Below, in pieces: positions 12,657 through 58,703 of a stretch of DNA of 64,000 bases (the first letter of the stretch is position 1; each line of letters starts with the position of its first letter). Under the pieces are notes generated by a model. That model did no database searches. It was not told the DNA's origin and saw only the letters and a list, made by a program, of their open reading frames with translations. Source of the stretch: Shigella phage vB_SdyM_006. A program made the position numbers and the translations under genes. The stretch is taken from the sequence record MK295204; one strand, written 5' to 3'.

Positions 12657-12854
12657 TTATTTTACCTCAATAATAGTGAGTTCAGTATCTTCTGTCAAAT
12701 CACAAAAGTCAAAAGCCAATGCAGCAATACCTGGGTATTCTGATTCGTCAATAATACATTCAGTATTATTATTTTTGATGTCTAAGGCTAATTGATAATT
12801 AGACGTAGTAAATCCAAGTTCAAGTTCTTCGCACCATACGGTATACTTTTTCAT
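12657..12854 (-). CDS. small protein, tandem paralogue A
   Basis: 65 aa; aligns along its length with 12855..13049 (VWCEE, GF-T--YQLA, C-terminal IEVK). Confidence 0.45.
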   Translation of the reverse strand: MKKYTVWCEELELGFTTSNYQLALDIKNNNTECIIDESEYPGIAALAFDFCDLTEDTELTIIEVK

Positions 12855-13049
12855 TTATTTTACCTCAATGAGTTCACAATCGTATAAACAACTACACAGT
12901 TCACAAAAAGAATAAGCCGATGCATATGAATCAGTGTCTATCCAAAACCCAAGATTATCAATAGCACCTTTACGAACTTCATAAGCAAGTTGATAATCAA
13001 CTGTTTCAAATCCAATTTTCTTTTCTTCGCACCATACTATATATTTCAT
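12855..13049 (-). CDS. small protein, tandem paralogue B
   Basis: 64 aa; paralogue of 12657..12854. Confidence 0.45.
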   Translation of the reverse strand: MKYIVWCEEKKIGFETVDYQLAYEVRKGAIDNLGFWIDTDSYASAYSFCELCSCLYDCELIEVK

Positions 13050-13894
13050 GAGTATTCCTTGTCATAATAAGAATCTGGAGTAAAAATATTTAACATATTT
13101 GTAGAATTATCAATAGTAATAATATTTTCCTGTTCAACTTCAGGTGTATAATATTTTAAAAACTCTTCTTTAACGTATTTTACTGGATCACTTTTATAAT
13201 CGTCAGTAGAAATATCAAATAATTCAATTGTATACGTATCAAGCCATTTTTCAGAACATGTTAATCGTCCACATAATAATCCATCATAAACGATAGCATA
13301 TTCAATATGGCCCCATTTATATGAGCTATCAGCGTCGTGTCTGATTAGATAAAACTTAATATCAGAATTCTCACAATCATCACTAATATTGTCACGAACA
13401 TCGTATTCATTGAGCTCGGTCAATTCACTTAAAGCATTAATAAACAGGTTTTTATATTGAGGGCCAGTTACTAACTTATCTTCTGTTAGTTCTTTCTCAA
13501 TAAATTCTTTTAAAGTTAAAACTGGCAATTCATACTTAGGAAATAATGCAGTTTCAGTAATAGTGCCGATATTCAATTCGGCCAATTTCTTAATAACAGA
13601 ATCTTCAGCTTTATCAGAATCAGTCCAAATATGAAGAACTTTAAAATTATGATTATTCCAAATTTTTTGTGGGTCAACATCAATCACATCTTGGGTTTTA
13701 GACAAAAACATTAAAAGGTAATCAGAATCATTCCACCCTACTGGGTTTTCGTATTTTTGAATGACTAGATATTGGAAATCAGTCATTAATGCATTATATC
13801 TTTCTTTAGAAGCTAAAGAAGTAGAATCCATAGATGAAGAAAAAGCTTCAATAACACTAGCTGGGTTTTTAATTAACATTTTGAATAGTCCCAT
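13046..13894 (-). CDS. hypothetical protein
   Basis: 282 aa ORF, no recognisable motif. Confidence 0.5.
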   Translation of the reverse strand: MGLFKMLIKNPASVIEAFSSSMDSTSLASKERYNALMTDFQYLVIQKYENPVGWNDSDYLLMFLSKTQDVIDVDPQKIWNNHNFKVLHIWTDSDKAEDSVIKKLAELNIGTITETALFPKYELPVLTLKEFIEKELTEDKLVTGPQYKNLFINALSELTELNEYDVRDNISDDCENSDIKFYLIRHDADSSYKWGHIEYAIVYDGLLCGRLTCSEKWLDTYTIELFDISTDDYKSDPVKYVKEEFLKYYTPEVEQENIITIDNSTNMLNIFTPDSYYDKEYS

Positions 13895-14115
13895 GTGATT
13901 TTAACACGATCATGATATATTACTCTATCATGGCTTTTTGAAACTGTAAATCCTTTTTCTTTAAGAATTTCAATCAACGCATCTTTAATGGCTTCATTTT
14001 CTGGAAGCTTTGCGTAATGCTCTGTACTATCATGCAAAGCCAGTTGGCAAATATCATTTAACACAATAGCTAAATTGTGTTCAACAACAGTATTTTTAAG
14101 ATCAGATAAATTCAT
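13873..14115 (-). CDS. hypothetical protein
   Basis: 80 aa ORF, first gene downstream of a putative minus-strand early promoter. Confidence 0.4.
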   Translation of the reverse strand: MNLSDLKNTVVEHNLAIVLNDICQLALHDSTEHYAKLPENEAIKDALIEILKEKGFTVSKSHDRVIYHDRVKITWDYSKC

Positions 14116-14149
14116 ATTATTCTCACAGTTGCGAATTGATGATGTGTAT

Positions 14150-14177
14150 ACTATATTATAAAATAGTGTTTGTAAAC
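14150..14177 (-). promoter_or_regulatory. putative divergent early promoter (GTTTAC-N16-TATAGT)
   Basis: GTTTAC on minus strand (plus 14172-14177) with TATAGT 16 nt downstream; weaker match. Confidence 0.3.
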
Positions 14178-14200
14178 ATCTAAAATAATTTAAAATAAAT

Positions 14201-14229
14201 GTTTACTTTTGCTGTCATTATGATATTAT
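14201..14229 (+). promoter_or_regulatory. T4-type early promoter (GTTTAC-N17-TATTAT)
   Basis: -35 GTTTAC 14201-14206, 17-nt spacer, -10 TATTAT 14224-14229; part of a conserved cassette. Confidence 0.6.
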
Positions 14230-14271
14230 ATACATATTGAAACGAAACATGAAAAACAAATGGAGTATATT

Positions 14272-14616
14272 ATGAATAAGACACAAATCAATGCAGTTTT
14301 AAAAACTTTAGGTTATGGTAATTTACGTTATTCTAATGGTAAAACATACCGCAGAGGAAACTCTATGGTTAAAGGTTTTCATTTAATTTCTACTGGTGCA
14401 TGTATGGTGACTTCACCAGAAACACAAAAATTTAGTGATCTTGTTAATGAGTTAAAACAACATTTTGAATTACAATCATATTATGACAATTGCATGGCAA
14501 TATTTGTGACAGGAAAATTAAAAATTGTTGTTTGTTTAACAAATTTTAATACATACGGTGGCTTAAACCCAGATTATAAAACATGGTTTGCATCTGTTAA
14601 TATTGAAAAGTTATAA
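14272..14616 (+). CDS. hypothetical protein, lone plus-strand gene in an accessory island
   Basis: Start placed at the second ATG, preceded by GGAGTATAT as in two other copies of the same promoter-leader cassette; own early promoter upstream and bidirectional terminator downstream. Confidence 0.5.
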   Translation: MNKTQINAVLKTLGYGNLRYSNGKTYRRGNSMVKGFHLISTGACMVTSPETQKFSDLVNELKQHFELQSYYDNCMAIFVTGKLKIVVCLTNFNTYGGLNPDYKTWFASVNIEKL

Positions 14617-14620
14617 AACA

Positions 14621-14645
14621 AAAATGGGACCGTAAGGTCCCATTT
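14621..14645. terminator. bidirectional terminator between plus-strand island gene and gene 54
   Basis: TGGGACC-GTAA-GGTCCCA flanked by A-run and T-run. Confidence 0.7.
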
Positions 14646-15560
14646 TCAAATTAATCTTGTTACAGCTCCTATTCCTCCTCCAGCACCACCTAATCTTGTT
14701 AAATTTCTTAATGAAGAGCTTAAAGAGTTTTCTTCTGAAATTGTATCTATGGCACCAATTGCTTTTGATTCTAACCAATCAAGAGCTGCTTGCCTACCGA
14801 CAGAACCTACCTGCATCACCCTGTATGCGAATGTAACATCAAAAACAGCAATAGTATTATTATCTTCATATGAAAGTTCAGGAGCACCTACCGACATAGG
14901 AACACACCCTGTGAACATGGCAACAGTATGTGGAAGACCGTTTCTATTGTGTAAATTAACCTGGATATCGGCTTCAACATCTATAGGTAAAGCACGTAGT
15001 CCTGTGATTGGGTCTTCAACTGAATTCACCCAATCTTGCATAGCTCGATAATTACTTGCTTCTGAATCCATCCTAAACGAAATTATCAACGGGTCATATT
15101 CTCTAGATAGAACTTTTATATTAGGTGAATTATGATTTTTATCCATCTCATAAGATAGTCTGTTTTCTGGTAATTTGACAGAATAAACCATTAACCCAGA
15201 TGTTGGAAATGCCATATTAAAGAAATCTAATAGATAAGTCCCTACTTCAAATTCTCCTAATAATGATTGAACCACACGATTAGACATGGCTCCTAAAAGA
15301 TATTTAGAAACACCAGATTTTCTCACTAGTTTTTGAGTACCAGCAACAACTAGACTTGATACTGCACTAGTTACATCATTTTGAGATATTCCAAGAAAAT
15401 CTGTATCTATAGGTAAATTGTTAAACAAAAAACCACCAAAATTATCTAAAAGCTCATTAGTTTTTGATGATGGGGCTGTGGCAAAAACAACACTAAACAT
15501 GTTTGTTCTTTGGAAGTCAAGATTGACAGCTTGGCTTTTAAATTCTTCTAATGTATACAT
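14646..15560 (-). CDS. 54: baseplate tail-tube junction protein
   Basis: 304 aa; last gene of the 51-27-28-29-48-54 hub series, matching T4 order and length (320 aa). Confidence 0.75.
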   Translation of the reverse strand: MYTLEEFKSQAVNLDFQRTNMFSVVFATAPSSKTNELLDNFGGFLFNNLPIDTDFLGISQNDVTSAVSSLVVAGTQKLVRKSGVSKYLLGAMSNRVVQSLLGEFEVGTYLLDFFNMAFPTSGLMVYSVKLPENRLSYEMDKNHNSPNIKVLSREYDPLIISFRMDSEASNYRAMQDWVNSVEDPITGLRALPIDVEADIQVNLHNRNGLPHTVAMFTGCVPMSVGAPELSYEDNNTIAVFDVTFAYRVMQVGSVGRQAALDWLESKAIGAIDTISEENSLSSSLRNLTRLGGAGGGIGAVTRLI

Positions 15561-21318: not shown

Positions 21319-21697
21319 AATGAATGTTTTATATTCTGACTTAGACCCTAAAATGGAAAAAGGCTGGGATAAAGACCTGCATAAAGTCGTAGGAGATAGG
21401 GCTGTCAAAAATTCTATTCTAGGAATAATTAGTACTAGGAAAGGGTCTAGACCCTTTGACCCAGAATTTGGGTGTAATATAACAGACCAATTATTCGAAA
21501 ATATGAGTCCATTAATAGAAGACACTATAGAGCGATCTATAGTTTCGGCTATTAAAAATTATGAGCCAAGAGTACAAAGATTAAAAGTTTCTGTTACTGC
21601 ATTGTATGATTCAAATTCTATAGTTGTAGATATTATTTTTTCTATTGTAGATAATCCAGACACATTAGAACAGATAAAAGTTCAATTATCAAAATAG
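21311..21697 (+). CDS. 25: baseplate wedge protein (lysozyme-like fold)
   Basis: 128 aa; blocks LYSD-DP-M, TRKGSRPFDPEFGC and NYEPR--L-V match T4 gp25. Confidence 0.9.
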   Translation: MSKMNVLYSDLDPKMEKGWDKDLHKVVGDRAVKNSILGIISTRKGSRPFDPEFGCNITDQLFENMSPLIEDTIERSIVSAIKNYEPRVQRLKVSVTALYDSNSIVVDIIFSIVDNPDTLEQIKVQLSK

Positions 21698-21936
21698 TTT
21701 ACTATAGTTATTAATTTATTACTTAATAGTTATATATAATATATAAAGAACTTAATAAAATAATAAAAATTCTGGAGCTGCGCTCCAGATTTCTTTAGAA
21801 ATAGTAACATATAGTTATTAATTTATTACTTAATAGTTATATAGAATATACTATACTTTTAATAAATTAATTTACTAGAGTTACTATTAATAGGCTATTA
21901 TAATAAAATGGTTATAATGAATCATTTGGAGGAACT
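21698..21936. repeat. composite AT-rich intergenic repeat element, copy A (gp25/uvsY)
   Basis: Contains two copies of ATAGTTATTAATTTATTACTTAATAGTTATATA plus a stem-loop; near-identical modules at 58498..58703 in swapped order. Confidence 0.8.
21772..21788 (+). terminator. stem-loop inside composite repeat, downstream of gene 25
   Basis: CTGGAGC-TGC-GCTCCAG. Confidence 0.4.
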
Positions 21937-26419: not shown

Positions 26420-28483
26420 TTAAATAATAAATTTTTCTGGGACAAAAGTAAGATCAACAGCTGTTGATAATAATTCTAGCCCTTTTTGACTAATTTTACC
26501 AGTATTTTCTTTTAAGAATTCTTTAAACCCAATTTTTTCGATTTTTCCTTCAGATAAAAACTTATTTCCGTCAATAAGTTCGCTTTCATCTAGTAATTCT
26601 GGATCCACTACAGATGTTTCTACTAATATTGGTCTATTAAATTCTATATCACGAGCGTTTTCATAACCGTGGATAGAATGAATCTTAAGAGCTAAACCTC
26701 TAGGTAAAATCACCTCGCATTCACTAGAGTATTTTGACATATTACCAGGAATAATAACATTGACTTTATGTGCACCTTTAATAGTTATACCCATAGAAAT
26801 GTTAATATCTGTTTTCTTAGTTGCTTTCTTACCATTAACGGCTACACCAATATTTTTTGGTGTCATAACTGTTGATATAACATCATCGAATGTTTCGGAT
26901 TCAAAAGTTACTGTAGTCGCGTTAGGTTTAATATTATCAAGAACATCATTTCGTTCCCCAAAAATAATTGGAGCTAATGAAGTCGAAATATAATTAGGAA
27001 AATATAATGTTTTATTTTTAGCAGCTTTTTCTACGTCGGCATAAGGTAATTTTTGTGCTCTATATAAAATAGTTCCTTTTTCTAACTTGGTTCCTTTTTT
27101 GAAGGCCCCATCTAAGACAGGAATTTTGTTTTCATACACAGATTTTAAACTTTTATCTTTACCAAGCAAAAAGTCGTTCATTTCTTCATATCCACGTAAA
27201 GCATAATCTGTGATAACTTTTCGCTCTTCTTCTGTTAAATCCATTTCTGTTTCGGTTCTAAATAACTCTTCTAAAGGAGTATAGAAAACATTTCTGTTTA
27301 AAGCAGAGATACAGCCTCTTAAAGCTCTAGTCTTAGCCACATTATCGTCAGGTCCATATGTTTCTAAATCTTCGGCTATTTTTTTGTAAACATCCATAGC
27401 ATTATTAGAAGTTTTGAGCGCATTGTTAATTATCAATATATACGGTTTTGCTAATTTATATTTTTCTTCACTAGATAAATGATAAAAATTTTCAACACCA
27501 TACCCAGATATGCGTTCTAAAGAATCTAATAAAAATCTAGCTTCTAGATCTGATTCTTCTTCACTCACGGCCGAATTTATTTTATCTAAAAACACAGATT
27601 TAGATTCATCAATTTTATTAAGGACATTTTTATGAACTAATGCAATTTTTGTAGAATCACTTTGGACAATAGGAGGATTATCTTGTAGTTCAATATATTT
27701 TCTTCTTCCTTCTTCAGAATAATTTTCTAAGTCTTCTGGTTTAGAAACACCATACATTGCTGATAATAATTCACGTCTAGAAACTTTAGTTTTTGAAATG
27801 ACAGATCGTTCACTTCTTGTGTTTTCTTGTGCTGCAATACTTCCTGCAATGGCTTCTAATTTAGACACTTGCTTGCCAGTTTTGTCATTGATATACACAT
27901 CACCTACTTTAGAATCGACTTTAGTATATAAGTCAGAATCAATACCAGGAATCCCAGCGATGTCTTCTAAAGGTCTGTTTTTACGATATATTAAAACATA
28001 AGCATGTTTACCTGTAAATTGATACAAATCTTCTAAGACAACAAATTTACCACCAGTACGTTGCATAGCCAGACGTTTGATTATTCTTTGTAATGTCTTT
28101 TCTTGGCCTTTCATTTTTTTAGCAGGGAATCTAAATAAAACTGCGTCCATTTTAAGTTTTTTAACTTGTTCGTATACAGTGTCAAAAATAGTATTCAATG
28201 CCCCAATAGGGTCTGAGCCTAAACCATTTCTTAATTCTGCTGCATTACCATTTTTAGACAAACTCATCAAAAACACTTGAACAAATTTATCACCTTGCTT
28301 TACTGCTTTTAATGCATCGCCTTTAGATAAATAAGACACCATTCTAACTAAAAGATTGTCATTTCCAGGAACACTGACATTCCATAATTGAGGGACCTTA
28401 GCCCTTTTATTAAGATTAATAGCTTTATATTGAGCTATTTCTGAATCAAAAACCTCATTTAAATTAATTTCATTTAATTCCAT
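26420..28483 (-). CDS. alt: Alt-like ADP-ribosyltransferase (packaged, R-S-ExE class)
   Basis: 687 aa vs 682 in T4; ART triad in order: LYRAQ (Arg), ISTSL (Ser-Thr-Ser), ECEVILPRG (Glu-x-Glu); TATAAATA late promoter upstream. Confidence 0.8.
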   Translation of the reverse strand: MELNEINLNEVFDSEIAQYKAINLNKRAKVPQLWNVSVPGNDNLLVRMVSYLSKGDALKAVKQGDKFVQVFLMSLSKNGNAAELRNGLGSDPIGALNTIFDTVYEQVKKLKMDAVLFRFPAKKMKGQEKTLQRIIKRLAMQRTGGKFVVLEDLYQFTGKHAYVLIYRKNRPLEDIAGIPGIDSDLYTKVDSKVGDVYINDKTGKQVSKLEAIAGSIAAQENTRSERSVISKTKVSRRELLSAMYGVSKPEDLENYSEEGRRKYIELQDNPPIVQSDSTKIALVHKNVLNKIDESKSVFLDKINSAVSEEESDLEARFLLDSLERISGYGVENFYHLSSEEKYKLAKPYILIINNALKTSNNAMDVYKKIAEDLETYGPDDNVAKTRALRGCISALNRNVFYTPLEELFRTETEMDLTEEERKVITDYALRGYEEMNDFLLGKDKSLKSVYENKIPVLDGAFKKGTKLEKGTILYRAQKLPYADVEKAAKNKTLYFPNYISTSLAPIIFGERNDVLDNIKPNATTVTFESETFDDVISTVMTPKNIGVAVNGKKATKKTDINISMGITIKGAHKVNVIIPGNMSKYSSECEVILPRGLALKIHSIHGYENARDIEFNRPILVETSVVDPELLDESELIDGNKFLSEGKIEKIGFKEFLKENTGKISQKGLELLSTAVDLTFVPEKFII

Positions 28484-28513
28484 TTTATCACCTTTATAAT
28501 AAGAATATATTAC

Positions 28514-28521
28514 TATTTATA
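28514..28521 (-). promoter_or_regulatory. late promoter TATAAATA for alt
   Basis: Exact octamer on minus strand 30 nt upstream of alt ATG 28483. Confidence 0.6.
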
Positions 28522-28527
28522 CCAAAA

Positions 28528-28550
28528 AGGAGACCGAAGTCTCCTTGTTT
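28528..28550 (-). terminator. hairpin terminator (AGGAGAC-CGAA-GTCTCCT family)
   Basis: 7-bp stem, CGAA loop, T-run on minus strand; between cassette gene and alt late promoter. Confidence 0.6.
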
Positions 28551-28563
28551 TTATATTATTTAT

Positions 28564-28773
28564 TTATTCACCAATTTCTTCTAAGAAATTCTCATAATCA
28601 GTTGGGAATCTTTTCCAAAACTTTTTAATTTTTTGTTCTTTATTCTTGCATTCTGCCAATGAAATCATTAAACCGTTATCAGAATCAGATTCAACTCGTG
28701 TTAATGTTAAACCTAATTCAGAAAGTGCTGTTAAGTGATTTTGTGCCAATACATATAAATATAAATCAAACAT
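28564..28773 (-). CDS. hypothetical early protein (cassette-driven)
   Basis: Start placed at ATG after GGAGTATATT within the conserved early promoter-leader cassette; 69 aa. Confidence 0.45.
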   Translation of the reverse strand: MFDLYLYVLAQNHLTALSELGLTLTRVESDSDNGLMISLAECKNKEQKIKKFWKRFPTDYENFLEEIGE

Positions 28774-28813
28774 AATATACTCCGTTGTTTCCGTGTGTTG
28801 TTTCAATATGTAT

Positions 28814-28842
28814 ATAATAACATGTCTACAGCAAAAGTAAAC
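28814..28842 (-). promoter_or_regulatory. early promoter (GTTTAC-N17-TATTAT), cassette copy
   Basis: Minus-strand GTTTAC (plus 28837-28842), 17-nt spacer, TATTAT (plus 28814-28819). Confidence 0.6.
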
Positions 28843-28861
28843 ATGTTATTGTGGCTTTTTA

Positions 28862-29098
28862 TTAAATAATTCTAGCTATCAATGCAGAAGTATTAATACT
28901 AACAGTAAATTCCATTGGCGTTTCATCTTCTTCAGAACTAATTACCATTGAATGGATTTCGGTAACACCAGATACGGATAAAACTCTATCTTCAATAATA
29001 GTTATATGTGAAGAATATTCAAAAGGACCATATGGGTCTCCATCTAATCTAGATGTATCTTTAAGCATTTTTAACAATTCAGCACTTGATAATTTCAT
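28862..29098 (-). CDS. hypothetical early protein (cassette-driven)
   Basis: Start placed at ATG after GGAGTATATA in the second copy of the cassette; 78 aa. Confidence 0.45.
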   Translation of the reverse strand: MKLSSAELLKMLKDTSRLDGDPYGPFEYSSHITIIEDRVLSVSGVTEIHSMVISSEEDETPMEFTVSINTSALIARII

Positions 29099-29135
29099 TA
29101 TATACTCCATTTTCGTATGTTGTTTCAATATGTAT

Positions 29136-29164
29136 ATAATAACATGTCTACAGCAAAAGTAAAC
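29136..29164 (-). promoter_or_regulatory. early promoter (GTTTAC-N17-TATTAT), cassette copy
   Basis: Minus-strand GTTTAC (plus 29159-29164), 17-nt spacer, TATTAT (plus 29136-29141); directly follows a terminator hairpin. Confidence 0.6.
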
Positions 29165-29185
29165 AAAAAAGAGCCTTTCGGCTCT
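29165..29185 (-). terminator. hairpin terminator upstream of cassette promoter
   Basis: GAGCC-TTTC-GGCTC followed on minus strand by TTTTTT then GTTTAC. Confidence 0.6.
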
Positions 29186-29387
29186 AAATAATTTTTGATA
29201 AATCATCTTGTATTGCTAAGATTTTATGAAAATCTGATTCTCTTATAGGACAAGACTTATCTAACTTAAATGATATTAAAGAATTCATAAAGATAGATTC
29301 TATTTGTTCTTCTAAATCATCTATTAAAATATTCTTCTGGTGATTGTCCAAAGATTTCATAAAAGTCATTTGCCTCTTGTTTATCAA
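29184..29387 (-). CDS. hypothetical small ORF overlapping ligase 3' end
   Basis: 67 aa ORF; overlaps the ligase gene by at least 44 nt in another frame, so doubtful. Confidence 0.2.
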   Translation of the reverse strand: MINKRQMTFMKSLDNHQKNILIDDLEEQIESIFMNSLISFKLDKSCPIRESDFHKILAIQDDLSKII

Positions 29388-30789
29388 GACGTCTCATTTT
29401 AACACGTGGTAAAAATAAACTATATGTTTCTCGTCCATCAACTTTTTGAGCTGCATTACATACACCCGAGATAATCATACCGACAAGTTTACCTTTCTTA
29501 TGAAGATCCCATAATAAACGACGGTCTAATTCATGACGTTTATCGAGTGGAATCCAGATTTTTTCTTTTGAACCTTTTACCTTTTCGTAATCTTTATCCT
29601 TAAAACCAGAACCACAGTCAACTAAAATAGTCCCATCTCTAGACCTTAAATTGACACCACCTAATTTTTCAGGGTCTTTAGAATGTGGATACGCACCAAT
29701 AATTTCTAAATCAAAATCTTTTTCTTCTTTAAATTTTACTTGGTCACAAGTACGTCCATCAGACCAAACACCAAGTTTATTTTTTAGAATAATACCTTCT
29801 AACTTCATATCAACATATTTTCTGTAAATAACTTGGGCTTCTTCTAAAGTCTTAACTTCTTCTGATGGAATTAATTCTAAACGTCCTGCTTTTTTAGTAA
29901 TTAATTCTAAATTTTTTAACCTTTCTTTGTAAGGTTTATTAATTTCTGAATTATCAGTCTGTGTACCTTGTGTAACTTCATAGTTAATTAGATCCCAGAC
30001 CTGGAATTTAACACAATCTGCTTCGGTTTTTGAAATGGTTCCTTGGATTGATTTATTTGCAATACCGTTACCTTCTTCTCTAGAAGCAACAATATTTTCT
30101 TCTTCGTCTTCATCAAAGAATAAATCTAGACCTTGTTTTGTTGATTTAGGAAAATAAACTAGTTCACCATCAAGAACAACGTTTCCTAATCCTTCAGTGA
30201 TAGATACAATTTCTTCTTTTAGCAAATCTAGACCAAGATATTCGCTACCAGAACGAGAATATAAATTAACTTCCCCGTCTACAACTTCGGCAAAACATCT
30301 AGCACCATCTGCTTTAAGCTGAGCTAATGCTGGGAATTTAATTTTAGATACATTAGCTTTACTAAAAGGCGCTGCTAAAAACTGCGGCTGCTTTGGTAAT
30401 AAATTTTCCCATACTTTGTTTGGAATACTTCTTCCTACACCACATTCCAAGTCACGTTTGACAATGCGTTTAATTAATGCTGCATCTTTAGGGCATAAAC
30501 TTTCTAATACATCTTTTAAAGCAGCAATTGCAGCATGTCCTGTTAAAACCCGTTCACCTAAAACATTTTCTAAAAAATCTAAAGCGTCACGAAGTGTTTT
30601 AGATTCGGTTTTAGGTTCATATTCTGGAATCTTTTTAATATGGAATTTGACTCTTTGAGAATATGTTAATCTAAACACATCTTTTACTAATAAATTGTTT
30701 TTATATTTTAAAAGAATATTTTCTTTTTCTTTTAATGAATCCGTAGAAGCTAGTTCTACAATAATATCGTATACCATACCTTTTTCCAT
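29317..30789 (-). CDS. 30: ATP-dependent DNA ligase
   Basis: 490 aa vs 487 in T4; adenylation motif FPALAQLKADGARCFAEV, plus RDLECG and GLEGIILKN blocks. Confidence 0.93.
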   Translation of the reverse strand: MEKGMVYDIIVELASTDSLKEKENILLKYKNNLLVKDVFRLTYSQRVKFHIKKIPEYEPKTESKTLRDALDFLENVLGERVLTGHAAIAALKDVLESLCPKDAALIKRIVKRDLECGVGRSIPNKVWENLLPKQPQFLAAPFSKANVSKIKFPALAQLKADGARCFAEVVDGEVNLYSRSGSEYLGLDLLKEEIVSITEGLGNVVLDGELVYFPKSTKQGLDLFFDEDEEENIVASREEGNGIANKSIQGTISKTEADCVKFQVWDLINYEVTQGTQTDNSEINKPYKERLKNLELITKKAGRLELIPSEEVKTLEEAQVIYRKYVDMKLEGIILKNKLGVWSDGRTCDQVKFKEEKDFDLEIIGAYPHSKDPEKLGGVNLRSRDGTILVDCGSGFKDKDYEKVKGSKEKIWIPLDKRHELDRRLLWDLHKKGKLVGMIISGVCNAAQKVDGRETYSLFLPRVKMRRLDKQEANDFYEIFGQSPEEYFNR

Positions 30790-30798
30790 TTATAGTCC

Positions 30799-31434
30799 TT
30801 ATTTTATACTATTTAATGATTCTTCTAAGTCTGGTAAAATGGATTCAAAATCATACCAGTCTTTAACATTGATAATAGGACAATCTGGCAAATCACGTTG
30901 TCCACGTGGCATATGAATCAAAGGTAGTCTCGAAATAACTTTATGACAATCTTCAAGATTATGAGCCAAATCATCAACAAAACATAAAAGATTTTTAGTG
31001 TGTTTAACTTTAACATCTAAATAATGAGGAGTTTTAGATTCACCATAATTCACAAGTAAAATATCACTAAATGCATTAGGAAATAAAGAATTCAAATTAT
31101 ATAACCGATTAAACAATGCCTGGTTAGTAGTTCCTAAAGCTGTGATAGCAACAAATTCATACTTATGTTTAAGCCTATTAATGACTTCAATGGCATCAGT
31201 ATATCCAGTTAGATACTTAATATATTTTGAGTTATTGTATTCCGTCATTAATTTTAAGCCAAGTTCTTCATTACAACGGAACATTTCGCCTGGCGACATA
31301 AAAACATTTTCTGTGATAACTCTTAAAATATTTGATGTATCAATACCATAATCTTGTGCAAAATAAGGAAGTCCAGATGCCCACTGGACTAAAATGCCAT
31401 CAACGTCAGTTAAAATAACAGGTTTTACTTGCAT
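30799..31434 (-). CDS. HAD-superfamily phosphatase, nucleotidase-like
   Basis: N-terminal HAD motif I VILTDVDGILV; 211 aa. Confidence 0.55.
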   Translation of the reverse strand: MQVKPVILTDVDGILVQWASGLPYFAQDYGIDTSNILRVITENVFMSPGEMFRCNEELGLKLMTEYNNSKYIKYLTGYTDAIEVINRLKHKYEFVAITALGTTNQALFNRLYNLNSLFPNAFSDILLVNYGESKTPHYLDVKVKHTKNLLCFVDDLAHNLEDCHKVISRLPLIHMPRGQRDLPDCPIINVKDWYDFESILPDLEESLNSIK

Positions 31435-32659: not shown

Positions 32660-33093
32660 AACCGTCTCCTTAAAGATGTCAATATACCACAGAATTCTTG
32701 GTTTGTTAATATAGTTTCGAACTTATTTTCGCATCCTATAGTATGAACTAATGTTTTATCGCCTGTTGCTCTCAGAGCATCTCTGAATGATTTATTCTGA
32801 TTAAACATATGAATATATGCTCTGACTAGTAAACGTTTGTAGGCTTCACTGTGACGATTAATAGGGCATCCATTATACCACATAGTGTCATTTTTCATTT
32901 TAGGACCAGCTAATTTGGCCTTTAATCCATGCAGTTTAAACACTTCAGATTGTTCTTTAGGGTCTTTAATTTTTAATCCTTGTAAAAATCCTTCTATACT
33001 GCCAAAGAGCTGATTGTCCATTTTAAAAGGATGCTCAGCAAAATTACTTAAAGCACATGAAGGCCAAGGGCCTCTAGAATGAATATCAATCAT
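32656..33093 (-). CDS. NADAR-like (YbiA-type) putative ADP-ribose glycohydrolase
   Basis: 145 aa; LSNFAEHPFKMDNQLFGSIEGFLQGLKI aligns with the YbiA core FSNFA-x-PI-x-DG-x3-TSEHYFQAQKF. Confidence 0.55.
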   Translation of the reverse strand: MIDIHSRGPWPSCALSNFAEHPFKMDNQLFGSIEGFLQGLKIKDPKEQSEVFKLHGLKAKLAGPKMKNDTMWYNGCPINRHSEAYKRLLVRAYIHMFNQNKSFRDALRATGDKTLVHTIGCENKFETILTNQEFCGILTSLRRRL

Positions 33094-33107
33094 ATATCCT
33101 CTAAACC

Positions 33108-33130
33108 AAAAAAGGAGACCGGAGTCTCCT
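33108..33130 (-). terminator. hairpin terminator 20 nt upstream of NADAR-like gene start
   Basis: AGGAGAC-CGGA-GTCTCCT with T-run on minus strand. Confidence 0.55.
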
Positions 33131-33137
33131 TAATCAT

Positions 33138-33402: not shown

Positions 33403-33432
33403 ATAATATCCTTTTTTAAAAGAGAAGTAAAC
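33403..33432 (-). promoter_or_regulatory. early promoter (GTTTAC-N18-TATTAT)
   Basis: Minus-strand GTTTAC (plus 33427-33432) and TATTAT (plus 33403-33408) upstream of gene 33138..33374. Confidence 0.45.
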
Positions 33433-33450
33433 ACTTATTTTCAATAAAAC

Positions 33451-33474
33451 CAAAAAAGGAGACCGAAGTCTCCT
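33451..33474 (-). terminator. hairpin terminator (AGGAGAC-CGAA-GTCTCCT family)
   Basis: Same stem as 28528 copy; T-run on minus strand. Confidence 0.6.
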
Positions 33475-33479
33475 TAAAT

Positions 33480-33614
33480 TTATTTCTTGTTTCCTAAATT
33501 AGCTAAAAACTTAGCTCGCCCATTTTCTTGTCGTTTAACAAATCCAACCAGTTTGTCTAGGTCTTGGTTAATACGTTTATTTGTTTTTCGTTTGTAACCT
33601 TTACGTGCGGACAT
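33480..33614 (-). CDS. small basic protein, 44 aa
   Basis: My own translation: MSARKGYKRKTNKRINQDLDKLVGFVKRQENGRAKFLANLGNKK; below ORF-track cutoff. Confidence 0.3.
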   Translation of the reverse strand: MSARKGYKRKTNKRINQDLDKLVGFVKRQENGRAKFLANLGNKK

Positions 33615-50572: not shown

Positions 50573-50601
50573 ATAATATCACGCTAAAAATCTTTGTAAA
50601 C
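50573..50601 (-). promoter_or_regulatory. early promoter (AAATAAATGTTTAC-N17-TATTAT)
   Basis: Minus-strand GTTTAC (plus 50596-50601), 17-nt spacer, TATTAT (plus 50573-50578); follows the gene 32 terminator. Confidence 0.55.
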
Positions 50602-50620
50602 ATTTATTTTCTATAAAACC

Positions 50621-50643
50621 AAAAAAGGAACCCGAAGGTTCCT
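50621..50643 (-). terminator. terminator after gene 32 (AGGAACC-CGAA-GGTTCCT)
   Basis: Hairpin then T-run on minus strand, directly followed by an early promoter. Confidence 0.65.
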
Positions 50644-50655
50644 TTTATTAAGAAA

Positions 50656-57386: not shown

Positions 57387-58497
57387 TATAATGGTTGAAT
57401 TCGGCCAAGATTATGTAGGTGCTCAAACGTTTGCAGAGAACAATGCACTTACATATAAGTTAACTATTAAGGCTAGTAATAAAAACACACAGGGTGAATC
57501 CTGTGTGTTAATTAACGATAATCAAATAACAACTGAATGCGATACTGGTATTAATGTTTGGGTCATTAATAATATAGGTAAACTTGATAATACTATGTGT
57601 TTTGATGTATCAACAGAATCTGGTATAACAGCATTTATAACATTTTTGAAAGAACAAACTTCTGGAATAATTTGTTTAGCTTCATCTAACGAATTAGATT
57701 CAACTCAAGTCTTAGCTGATTATATGAAATCTATAGGTTCTGCTTCATGGAATAATTTTATGATTTCTAAAATCAAAACAGTGTCTTATGCAGCAGTCTA
57801 TCGTCCAGAATTAAAATCCATTGTTCTGGAATCTATACAATATTCTGATGGAATTAAAGAAGATGAATTACTTGAGTTAGAAACCATTTTTGATTCTAAT
57901 AATTCTATAGGAATAACAGGATTTCCTGGTTCAATCGTATATGATTATAAAGAATACACGTCAATTGAACAAGATTATAAAAAATGGCCTACTAATCTTT
58001 TAAATAACAAGCTTTCTGATTATGGTCTTAAACCTGGCGATTGGGTTTCTTTGAGTGCTTCTATATTTGGAGATAAAGAATTAAAAGATGACGGTGGATG
58101 GACTAGAATAGATTGTAGATGGGTATTTGGTAATGCATGGAAACAATCATTTTATTTAGAAAGTACATTGAAAGGGAATTATCCTGTTCAGTCTATGGTT
58201 AATCCTGGTATCTGGGAATCTAAAACAGTTTATTCTCAAATACCAGAAGGTGTAGATGGATTTGTTATAATAGCTTCAAGATATAATTCAGACTTAGGCC
58301 ATTCTGCTGTAAAAAATGTTGCATTCGGAAGAGCTGCAGAACCTATAATAGAAAAATCTGATAGACAAATAGGTATAAATGGTATTAGAAATTCTTTTGT
58401 AAAAGAGGAAGAACAAAAAGTAGGATCGTTATTAAGTTTGTTAAATCTTAAAGACAAATCCGACACAGTTTCTTCTATAAACTTTAAAGAAATATAG
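57379..58497 (+). CDS. 35: long tail fibre hinge protein
   Basis: 372 aa, same length as T4 gp35; overlaps gp34 stop by 8 nt. Confidence 0.75.
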   Translation: MSNIMVEFGQDYVGAQTFAENNALTYKLTIKASNKNTQGESCVLINDNQITTECDTGINVWVINNIGKLDNTMCFDVSTESGITAFITFLKEQTSGIICLASSNELDSTQVLADYMKSIGSASWNNFMISKIKTVSYAAVYRPELKSIVLESIQYSDGIKEDELLELETIFDSNNSIGITGFPGSIVYDYKEYTSIEQDYKKWPTNLLNNKLSDYGLKPGDWVSLSASIFGDKELKDDGGWTRIDCRWVFGNAWKQSFYLESTLKGNYPVQSMVNPGIWESKTVYSQIPEGVDGFVIIASRYNSDLGHSAVKNVAFGRAAEPIIEKSDRQIGINGIRNSFVKEEEQKVGSLLSLLNLKDKSDTVSSINFKEI

Positions 58498-58634
58498 TAA
58501 CATATAGTTATTAATTTATTACTTAATAGTTATATAGAATATACTAGACTTTTAATAAATTAATTTACTAGAGTTACTAATTTATTACTTAATAGTTATA
58601 TATAATATAAAGAACTTAATAAAAATAATAAATT

Positions 58635-58658
58635 CTGGGAGCTTTGCTCCCAGTTTTC
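58635..58658 (+). terminator. stem-loop inside composite repeat, downstream of gene 35
   Basis: CTGGGAGC-TTT-GCTCCCAG followed by TTTTC. Confidence 0.5.
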
Positions 58659-58675
58659 TTTAGAAAATGCTCTTT

Positions 58676-58683
58676 TATAAATA
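58676..58683 (+). promoter_or_regulatory. late promoter TATAAATA for gene 36
   Basis: Exact octamer 20 nt upstream of ATG 58704. Confidence 0.6.
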
Positions 58684-58703
58684 GTATAAAGAAAGGAGAT
58701 TAT

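Follow-up and report, generated by a model that had tools for sequence, protein, structure and literature searches.

T4-type phages carry regulatory cassettes known as PeSLs (promoter-early stem-loops), in which a stem-loop and an AT-rich tract are followed by -35 and -10 elements and, at the 3' end, by an SD sequence and an ATG (PMC4122927; PMC2839356). The consensus for the PST/T4-type PeSL is TTTACW-N17-TAYWAT, and about 50 PeSLs are present in RB49/phi1 (PMC2839356; PMC4122927). Cassettes described as 'degraded' or as half PeSLs were accepted in the 2014 paper by Comeau (PMC4122927), and PeSL-plus-ORF cassettes were likened to integrons by Arbiol et al. (PMC2839356).

The 64,000-nucleotide stretch of DNA analysed here (the window; record MK295204) belongs to a T4-like phage of Bragavirus, a genus of Proteus phages, and is close to phiP4-3 and SJ_PmiM. 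It contains three copies of a unit of 72-77 nt that spans from just upstream of a -35 element to an ATG. The three copies are a local example of the PeSL cassettes already described and not a new kind of element. We consider it probable, from the comparison of sequences, that they are PeSL-type immediate-early cassettes and that the type found at one locus, copy C, was copied onto the other two by recombination or gene conversion.

The likeness to PeSLs lies in the combination of an AT-rich tract, a sigma-70-like early promoter, an SD and a start codon, conserved over ~70-100 bp; in a promoter that matches TTTACW...TAYWAT; in the siting before small ORFs of unknown function in hyperplastic regions; and in indels or ORF displacement between relatives, which here place the ORF A module on opposite sides of alt depending on the clade. 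Copy B additionally has a stem-loop immediately upstream of its promoter, as in the PST/T4 type. Differences are also apparent. The spacer is N16 rather than the published N17, although it is within the sigma-70 range. An intact stem-loop is absent from copies A and C, which correspond to the 'degraded' or half PeSLs of 2014. The variant is present in three copies per genome as opposed to ~50 PeSLs in RB49/phi1, and here one cassette appears to have overwritten others (concerted evolution) rather than there being only crossover between cassettes. Morons and integron cassettes are likewise comparable, in that a small accessory gene with its own promoter, and sometimes a terminator, sits between conserved genes. 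Morons, however, have no defining regulatory sequence that is shared and repeated, and integrons use an integrase and attC sites, with cassettes that are usually promoterless.

Three copies of a promoter-leader-RBS unit

Copies A (28845..28771) and B (29167..29096) are on the minus strand and copy C (14198..14274) is on the plus strand. All three were found by pattern, repeat and profile searches, and an nhmmer profile of the three scored them at 80.4, 69.8 and 66.9 bits, respectively, with the next best match in the window and the whole phiP4-3 genome below 9 bits; the profile thus gave no cassette copy beyond these three in the 168-kb phiP4-3 genome. Over the first 45 nt, copies A and B agree at 45 of 45 positions (100%), non-contact spacer positions included; over the full 72-75 nt, where the leaders differ by a small indel, they are 92% identical. 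Copy C is 87% identical to A and B over the first 45 nt and ~83-84% overall, and departs from them within the 8 nt just upstream of the -10 element. A repeat search of the window returned A and B as a 56-nt direct repeat with 96% identity at a spacing of 322 nt, and C as an inverted match to A/B (56-57 nt at 84%) with a separate match to the RBS block. The 18-mer AATGTTTACTTTTGCTGT, with up to 3 mismatches allowed, occurs at four sites against an expectation of 0.26; one of these sites (14509-14526, 3 mismatches) is nevertheless not a cassette copy. The A/B arrangement is present in two independently sequenced genomes with a single SNP over 660 nt, and it is therefore not an assembly artefact.

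Each unit reads as a predicted strong sigma-70 early promoter, with a GTTTAC -35 element, a 16-17 nt spacer, an extended -10 TGn and a TATTAT -10 element, followed by an A/C-rich leader and GGAG-N6-ATG, and independent consensus scans called TTTACT-N16-TATTAT with a TG at -15/-14 in every copy. In copy A, the -35 TTTACT is at 28841-28836, the TGn with the -10 TATTAT at 28819-28814, the predicted +1 at ~28807, the SD GGAG at 28783-28780 and the ATG at 28773-28771. The corresponding positions in copy B are 29163-29158, 29141-29136, ~29129, 29108-29105 and 29098-29096, also on the minus strand, and those in copy C, on the plus strand, are 14202-14207, 14224-14229, ~14236, 14262-14265 and 14272-14274. 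The 3' end of each copy, with the SD and start codon, is formed by the block GGAGTATATWATG. Promoter activity, start sites and timing are read here from sequence and are accordingly given as predictions.

The 5' leaders of ~31-37 nt are A/C-rich and unstructured in all three copies. A structured leader or known RNA was considered and ruled out: their folding is less stable than that of shuffled sequences (z of +0.8 to +1.3), and an Rfam scan of 28300-29500 at E<=1 gave no match. The inverted repeat TTATATAC/GTATATAA has one arm around the -10 element and the other just after the SD; its 5' arm lies upstream of the predicted start and is therefore unlikely to be within the RNA.

The preliminary description had reported three copies, two of them adjacent at 28771-29190, and they are where it placed them, the adjacent pair being on the minus strand. 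Its view that about 80 bp are nearly identical is correct for A and B, at 92% over 72-75 nt, but not for C, at 83-84%. It was right that each copy contains a T4-type early promoter, a leader, an SD and a start codon, the promoter being called by the consensus scans in 3 of 3 copies, and that the coding sequences downstream are unrelated. Pairwise alignment placed the end of the similarity at the ATG, so a duplication running through the coding sequence was not seen, and the search of the genome and of related phages yielded the three copies in phiP4-3 and related cassettes in 551 records of T4-like genomes.

Genes and hairpins around the copies

Copies A and B lie in the interval between the ligase gene and alt, and copy C lies between gp54 and a cluster of early ORFs. 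ORF A (28564..28773, minus strand) encodes 69 aa and belongs to phrog_25836, ORF B (28862..29098, minus strand) encodes 78 aa and belongs to phrog_22000, and ORF C (14272..14616, plus strand, convergent with gp54) encodes 114 aa and belongs to phrog_13016. The function of each is unknown; a Pfam search with the three ORFs gave no match, and the PHROG families themselves are of unknown function. The three ORFs are unrelated, as blastp gave either no alignment or E=0.33, and they fall in three different PHROGs. ORF A has homologues (35-38% identity) downstream of alt in PM2, Pm5461 and PSTCR6. ORF B is 44% identical to a homologue of PM2/Pm5461 at the same position there, and ORF C is 46-47% identical to orthologues of SJ_PmiM/PM2/Pm5461 and ~30% identical to homologues in several enterobacterial phages of ~150-180 kb (Klebsiella, Salmonella, Escherichia and Cronobacter). 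Between clades, the cargo ORFs are thus 35-47% identical, compared with 75-85% nucleotide identity in the flanks.

A terminator-like hairpin, AGAGCC-GAAA-GGCTCT (29170..29185, minus strand; 6 pairs, 4 of them GC, a loop of 4 and the tail TTTTTTG), precedes copy B, and its T-run passes directly into the -35 element of that copy. This hairpin is the stem-loop part of a PeSL and a candidate terminator that would close the ligase/30.x transcription unit. The B-A unit is predicted to be closed by the terminator hairpin AAGGAGAC-TTCG-GTCTCCTT (28527..28546, minus strand), identified by a consensus scan and a repeat-family match, which is followed by a late-promoter motif, TATAAATA (28521-28514, minus strand), located before alt. 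Copy A has no intact upstream hairpin and only a possible relic, AAAAAGCC. Copy C has no stem-loop and stands back-to-back with a divergent early promoter at ~14176 (minus strand), and a 13-bp hairpin called on the minus strand at 14619..14648, where ORF C and gp54 converge, may serve as a bidirectional terminator.

Origin of the shared sequence

Copy C is conserved at its position in 4 of 4 Bragaviruses, and the predicted promoter that it contains is the ancestral promoter of its gene. The homologues of ORFs A and B in PM2, Pm5461 and PSTCR6 have their own, different promoters, and the orthologous loci of PM2 have promoters with only 70-77% identity to A/B. Three or four states are common only to A, B and C of the window (the G in TGCTG, the T in ATATAC and the TTG in ATATTGAAAC); by alignment, the C orthologues of SJ_PmiM and Pm5461 do not have them. 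In Pm5461 and SJ_PmiM, the C locus alone has the block GGAGTATATWATG; in the window clade, the A and B loci have it too. The PM2/PSTCR6 homologues of A and B carry GGAGAAATAAAAATG, GGAGAATTAAAAATG or GGAGATTAAAATG in its place. Pm5461 and PM2 have no cassette A with ORF A in the interval from ORF B to alt, and the window clade is the only one to carry this pair upstream of alt; the ORF A homologue of PM2, Pm5461 and PSTCR6, downstream of alt, has its own family-type promoter. At the C locus, identity reaches 70-90% across the cassette and ~55 nt of coding sequence and falls to 40-60% in the stretches on either side.

This distribution suggests that in the phiP4-3-like lineage the A and B loci received copies of the native ORF C cassette, an argument built on 3-4 informative substitutions and one 13-nt block in two Bragavirus clades and one outgroup. 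Most likely, promoters already in place were replaced by the C-type cassette, or received a duplicate of it, through homologous recombination or gene conversion; gene capture is less likely. Integration or excision of a PeSL mini-circle in one step was rejected, as integration at a resident B promoter predicts the order P-A-P-B and the observed order is P-B-P-A. Database searches did not enlarge the set. In IMG/VR, the exact degenerate cassette pattern was found only in phiP4-3 and one Mosigvirus-like contig, with no new context, and a locus search based on Alt returned no further close relative of the window clade. The exact pattern had no match in metagenome contigs, and IMG/VR and the metagenomes contained no variant without ORF B and no further cargo genes behind the cassette.

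The preliminary description had cast the unit as a mobile module, similar to promoter-stem-loop cassettes, that captures or drives accessory genes. The comparison with PeSLs is borne out by their definition, which includes the SD and start codon (PMC4122927; PMC2839356), and by the stem-loop at B, but does not extend to an intact stem-loop at A and C. The comparative data indicate that loci exchanged cassette sequence, but there is no sign of autonomous movement. Nor is capture supported: C is ancestral to its gene, and the homologues of ORFs A and B have their own promoters elsewhere. A fully autonomous element, in which a dedicated enzyme inserts the promoter-RBS unit before genes in an integron-like manner, would fit the sharp boundaries of the unit, where similarity among the copies begins at TGTTTAC (-36) and ends exactly at the ATG, and the comparison with integrons made by Arbiol et al. 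for PeSL-plus-ORF cassettes (PMC2839356). This explanation is nonetheless very improbable: a non-systematic look at the flanks noticed no terminal inverted repeats or target-site duplications, the ORF maps contain no adjacent recombinase or homing-endonuclease ORF, no integrase or attC-like sites were noted at the cassettes, only three copies are present in 168 kb, and the exact-pattern scans gave none in metagenomes and none in new contexts among viral contigs. Simple tandem duplication, by which A and B would be diverged copies of one promoter-plus-gene unit, accords with their being adjacent direct repeats 322 nt apart, but is refuted already at the sequence level and must be considered extremely improbable, given that ORFs A and B give no blastp alignment with each other and belong to different PHROGs, that each has its own PM2/Pm5461 homologue, at different positions, and that the similarity stops at the ATG. 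Independent convergence, in which selection drives every early promoter and RBS to the same optimum without copying between loci, has in its favor that T4 early promoters have a consensus that reaches beyond -35/-10 to include UP, TGn and additional regions (PMC2988021) and that several other phiP4-3 early promoters share the downstream motif ATAGACACATCAAAACAAATGGAG. Yet the ~26 other GTTTAC-type early-promoter sites of the phiP4-3 genome are only 51-69% identical to the cassette and do not conserve its spacer and leader, whereas A and B agree at all 45 positions, non-contact spacer included, and the 70-77% identity of the PM2 promoters also counts against it. Moreover, the 13 GTTTAC promoters in the first 50 kb of T4, scored from a record without promoter annotation, reach 51-71% against the family consensus, which rules out that the cassette is the general T4 early-promoter consensus. 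Convergence is thus very unlikely.

The spacer and the initial transcribed region may instead be shared as the site of a phage regulator, for example MotA through a TGCTT-like motif of the spacer, that would co-regulate a subset of early genes. We give this reading a slender chance, and it is compatible with recombination as the source of the copies. Homologous cassettes are present at 1432 places in 551 records of T4-like genomes, with up to 9 per genome, and stand before motA, nrdC.10, thioredoxin and hypothetical genes. From -36 to +9, the identity is 76-89% to the promoters upstream of motA (Tequatrovirus C40 and Klebsiella PWKp18) and nrdC.10 (Mosigvirus PhAPEC2), and 82% to a copy in IME08 that precedes an unannotated ORF located between gp52 and motA. 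In the related cassettes of E. coli, Klebsiella and Pectobacterium phages, the spacer retains TTTTGCTTTA, a perfect MotA-box-like string, and its remainder, like the start region, is conserved at 80-93% across genera. The window cassettes resemble the T4 motA-type early promoter, of which Tevenvirinae have paralogous copies, in GTTTAC/TGn/TAYTAT, the A/C-rich leader and GGAG-N6-ATG; they differ in the cargo genes, in the spacer (TGCTG rather than TGCTT) and in the SD context, which is GGAGTATAT as opposed to the RegB-optimal GGAGRAYARAA. That the motA promoter itself is within the cassette family favors an operator, but the promoter of the Bragavirus motA operon is a different one, outside the family. 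In T4, the spacing from the MotA box to the -10 element is 11-13 bp. T4 middle promoters have a MotA box, (a/t)(a/t)(a/t)TGCTT(t/c)A, centred at -30 and a TAnnnT -10 element (PMC2988021). In the window copies, the box is mutated to TGCTG and centred at ~-24/-25, with no TAnnnT 11-13 bp downstream, which rules out a MotA-dependent middle promoter and speaks against an operator of that kind. According to the review by Hinton, AsiA does not explain early-promoter shut-off (PMC2988021), which leaves room for a regulator. A bolder version postulates a cross-genus 'motA-type' subclass of early promoters, in which the spacer TTTTGCT[T/G]TA and the start region form an operator, for instance for MotA ~5 bp out of register, that gives some of the immediate-early genes a shut-off or feedback circuit of their own. 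The subclass would spread within genomes as directed copying places it at the 5' ends of further genes. This proposal is about equally doubtful.

Predicted role and significance

If the copies are PeSL-type cassettes that were homogenized by recombination, T4 biology provides an outline of how they may operate. Host RNA polymerase would fire the cassette promoters within the first minute of infection, possibly with help from injected Alt, and the open leader and strong SD would cause a small accessory protein to be translated in a burst. The burst may be ended by the RegB/S1 endonuclease, for which the GGAG of the SD is a plausible target. The phiP4-3 annotation includes Alt, MotA, AsiA and a RegB-like 'site-specific RNA endonuclease'. 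A strong RegB/S1 site has an intergenic, unpaired GGAG within the consensus GGAGRAYARAA and lies on an early transcript. The SD context, GGAGTATATWA, agrees with this consensus at 8-9 of 11 positions, and the GGAG is predicted to be unpaired or weakly paired in the leader. The T4 motA transcript is a RegB-cleaved early mRNA, and the cassettes here are candidate RegB targets. The hairpins upstream of B and downstream of A may keep the two-gene module separate from the ligase and alt units. Homologous recombination among related early-promoter cassettes, or gene conversion, would have copied the native ORF C cassette, with its leader and GGAGTATATWATG, onto the promoters of ORFs A and B, leaving direct repeats of 45-56 bp on either side of ORF B. 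In T4-type phages, such repeats have been proposed to mediate deletion, mini-circle formation and module shuffling.

The three cassettes leave the current view of genome plasticity in T4-type phages unchanged. They extend PeSL-type cassettes to the genus Bragavirus and flag ORFs A, B and C as probable immediate-early genes of the host-takeover type. They also provide a clean, small example of concerted evolution of a promoter, leader and RBS between loci that are 14.6 kb apart and in opposite orientation, in which the conserved unit stops exactly at the start codon. Finally, the 322-bp module with ORF B is predicted to be prone to recombination in phages now under development for use against Proteus infections.

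Three cassette copies before unrelated genes

The window (G+C, 31.7%) is part of a T4-like Proteus phage genome (Straboviridae, genus Bragavirus), and near-identical early promoter-leader-RBS cassettes lie in it at 28845..28771 (copy A) and 29167..29096 (copy B) on the minus strand and at 14198..14274 (copy C) on the plus strand. A repeat search of the window returned A and B as a 56-nt direct repeat with 96% identity and C as an inverted match to A/B (56-57 nt, 84%), with the RBS block called as a separate repeat, and a three-copy profile scored 80, 70 and 67 bits on A, B and C; all three copies in the preliminary description were thus found. No further copy exceeded 9 bits with this profile in the window or the complete 167,849-bp phiP4-3 genome. 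The A/B repeat is real, since the region is near-invariant across the window, SJ_PmiM and phiP4-3 (1 SNP in 660 nt).

The anatomy of the promoter, leader and RBS, the insulation by hairpins, the unrelated cargo and the three copies per genome are read directly from the sequence. On the coding strand the unit reads TGTTTAC - TTTTGCTGT(8 nt) - TATTAT - ATACATATTGAAAC - an A/C-rich stretch of 12-22 nt - GGAG - TATAT(T/A) - ATG, with 6 nt between GGAG and ATG, and at each of the three sites an independent consensus scan called TTTACT-16-TATTAT with a TG extended -10. The predicted leaders are 31-37 nt long, taking +1 about 7 nt past the -10. Neither Rfam nor folding against shuffled controls revealed a structured RNA in the cassette: the leaders matched no Rfam family and folded more weakly than the controls (z +0.8 to +1.3).

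Copy B comes directly after a hairpin and its T-run (29185-29170), and a second hairpin (28546-28527) lies 3' of ORF A, the gene behind copy A. The minus-strand layout, with P for promoter and T for terminator hairpin, is ligase - small ORF - T - P(B) - ORF B - P(A) - ORF A - T - P_late - alt. The T4 late-promoter motif before alt, TATAAATA (28514-28521), sits right behind the terminator, fits Alt as a packaged, late-made protein, and is conserved with its flanks in Pm5461 and PM2. Copy C adjoins, back-to-back, a divergent early promoter at ~14176 (-), and the ORF C that it drives converges on gp54, from which a 13-bp hairpin separates it. This divergent pair (14148-14229; ~14176 (-) and 14202 (+)) has its -35 elements ~25 bp apart and drives small genes in both directions.

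The encoded proteins (ORF A, 69 aa; ORF B, 78 aa; ORF C, 114 aa) gave no significant pairwise alignment and no Pfam match, and they belong to different PHROGs of unknown function (25836, 22000 and 13016, respectively). Similarity between the copies stops precisely at the ATG and does not reach into the coding regions, so the finding withstands the test set for it in the preliminary description, whose claim of unrelated downstream genes holds; gene duplication as the source of the copies is refuted. Between two Bragavirus clades the cargo proteins share 35% (A), 44% (B) and 46-47% (C) identity, and the flanking core genes ~75-90% at the nucleotide level. The good conservation of ORF C (14272-14616) between clades is confined to its first ~18 codons. 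Outside the Proteus phage group, homologues (~30% identical) occur in several ~150-180-kb Klebsiella, Salmonella, Escherichia and Cronobacter phages, so ORF C seems to be an accessory gene shared by horizontal transfer.

A sequence family and its probable exchange between loci

Could the copies simply be good matches to a promoter consensus? Over the first 44-45 nt of A/B, A and B are 100% identical and C is 87-89% identical to them. All other sites among the 29 in a phiP4-3 catalogue (GTTTAC-N16-18-TAnnnT) reach 51-69%, and T4 early promoters (first 50 kb of T4) reach 51-71% to the family consensus; because these values are far lower, the cassette is, by this comparison, a sequence family of its own, distinct from the general T4 early-promoter logo. 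Pure convergence of promoters is unlikely. The PM2 promoters at the B and A loci are 70% and 77% identical to A/B, and the SJ_PmiM/Pm5461 C orthologue is 78% identical to window C. A MotA middle promoter was rejected: the box is TGCTG in these copies and is centred at about -24/-25 instead of -30. A regulatory operator within the conserved spacer has a low probability.

Because a related promoter, leader and RBS precede the ORF C orthologue in all four Bragaviruses, copy C is, judged from sequence, ancestral at its own locus. In an alignment of ten cassette sequences, 3-4 substitutions (G in TGCTG, T in ATATAC, TTG in ATATTGAAAC) are confined to window A, B and C and missing from the SJ_PmiM/Pm5461 C orthologues and all outgroups. 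In Pm5461 and SJ_PmiM only the C locus carries the block (A)TGGAGTATATWATG, which the window clade has at the A/B loci as well; the PM2/PSTCR6 homologues of A/B carry other RBS blocks (GGAGAAATAAAAATG, GGAGAATTAAAAATG, GGAGATTAAAATG). The comparison supports sequence exchange between cassettes, and these few sites are most simply read as the copying, in the phiP4-3-like lineage, of a C-type cassette onto the A/B promoters, followed by swaps of short patches between C and A/B.

The promoter part matches 125 phage records, chiefly E. coli T4-like phages. The complete 72-nt unit, in its E. coli-phage form, was matched at 1432 places in 551 records, with as many as 9 in one genome; the matches precede motA, nrdC.10, thioredoxin and hypothetical genes. 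The PhAPEC2 nrdC.10 copy (GTTTACTTTTGCTTTAAACATGTTATTATAGACCTATCGAAAC...GGAGAATAAAATG) is 89% identical to A/B over -36..+9; other examples read were motA of Tequatrovirus C40 and of Klebsiella PWKp18, IME08, Pectobacterium PM2 and Citrobacter Merlin. Separately, a motif downstream of the -10, TAYTATAGACACATCAAAACAAATGGAG, is common to many otherwise dissimilar early promoters of phiP4-3 (e.g., phiP4-3 17883, 103936, 159034; window 50600 (-)), which suggests a general constraint on the early-transcript start region and leader in these and E. coli T4-like phages.

Gene order and mosaicism

In the direction of early transcription, the order is ligase - alt - orf - orf - A' - orf - hoc in PSTCR6, ligase - 30.x - T.P - B' - T - alt - P - A' - P - X' - hoc in PM2 and Pm5461 (primes mark counterparts), and ligase - 30.x - T.P - B - P - A - T - alt - P - X - hoc in the window, SJ_PmiM and phiP4-3. 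The module of promoter and ORF A therefore lies on opposite sides of alt depending on the clade. Nearly all small ORFs of this interval carry their own early promoter, several with an upstream hairpin. At the C locus, the cassette and the first ~55 nt of ORF C form an island of 70-90% identity between neighbours at 40-60%.

Close relatives are mosaic (13000-13898 vs 27000-31000). At 27-31 kb, around ligase-alt, the window is closest to SJ_PmiM (99.5%; phiP4-3, 98.4%). At 13-15.6 kb, phiP4-3 is the sole match around ORF C (97.8%), with SJ_PmiM being PM2-like there and, as for PM2 and Pm5461, only ~75% identical; ORFs at 12657..13894 are absent from these three phages.

Relation to promoter-early stem-loop cassettes

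PeSLs of T4-type phages are ~100-bp conserved composites of stem-loop, AT-rich tract, sigma-70-like early promoter (PST/T4-type consensus, TTTACW-N17-TAYWAT), SD and start codon; they precede ORFans in hyperplastic regions, are linked to indels and ORF displacement, and can recombine into mini-circles (Arbiol 2010, PMC2839356; Comeau 2014, PMC4122927). Copy B has all of these sequence features, with a spacer of N16, whereas copies A and C, which have no stem-loop, match the 'degraded' PeSLs. A second repeated regulatory family, with a terminator hairpin AAAAAAGGAGACCGAAGTCTCCTT (or GGAACCCGAAGGTTCC), occupies four sites (33427-33480 and 50596-50649, functioning on the minus strand; 28498-28551; 33083-33136). 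Two of the four, 85% identical over 54 nt, have a TGTTTAC early promoter ~20 nt past the hairpin, the classic PeSL layout of stem-loop and promoter, with a promoter body unlike that of the cassette. An AT-rich 86-nt repeat (99% identical) lies in two distant intergenic regions (21694-21886, 58494-58645), gp25-uvsY (21698-21936) and the long-tail-fibre gp35-gp36 junction (58498-58690), where a further, weaker tandem copy and a hairpin CTGGAGC...GCTCCAG accompany it in both cases; the repeat does not resemble an early promoter.

T4 early promoters combine UP, -35, TGn, -10 and extra consensus elements and are stimulated by Alt (Hinton review), and early-mRNA GGAG SDs are cut by RegB/S1, with a strong-site consensus GGAGRAYARAA (Uzan and Miller) that the window cassette matches at 8-9 of 11 positions. 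Annotated phiP4-3 genes include Alt, MotA, AsiA and a RegB-like endonuclease. By analogy with T4, host sigma-70 RNA polymerase would transcribe the cassette genes immediate-early, the open leader would allow efficient translation, and RegB might shut them off. The perfect A/B direct repeats (45-56 bp) may be substrates of the phage recombination system, which needs <50 bp of homology (Arbiol et al., PMC2839356, citing Singer et al. 1982). The order P-B-P-A does not fit the outcome predicted for one mini-circle integrating at the resident B promoter. The preliminary description had proposed a PeSL-like mobile module; an autonomous mobile element has no supporting features, and the PeSL part of that interpretation stands. 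The cassettes are essentially the known PeSL concept in a new genus, Bragavirus.
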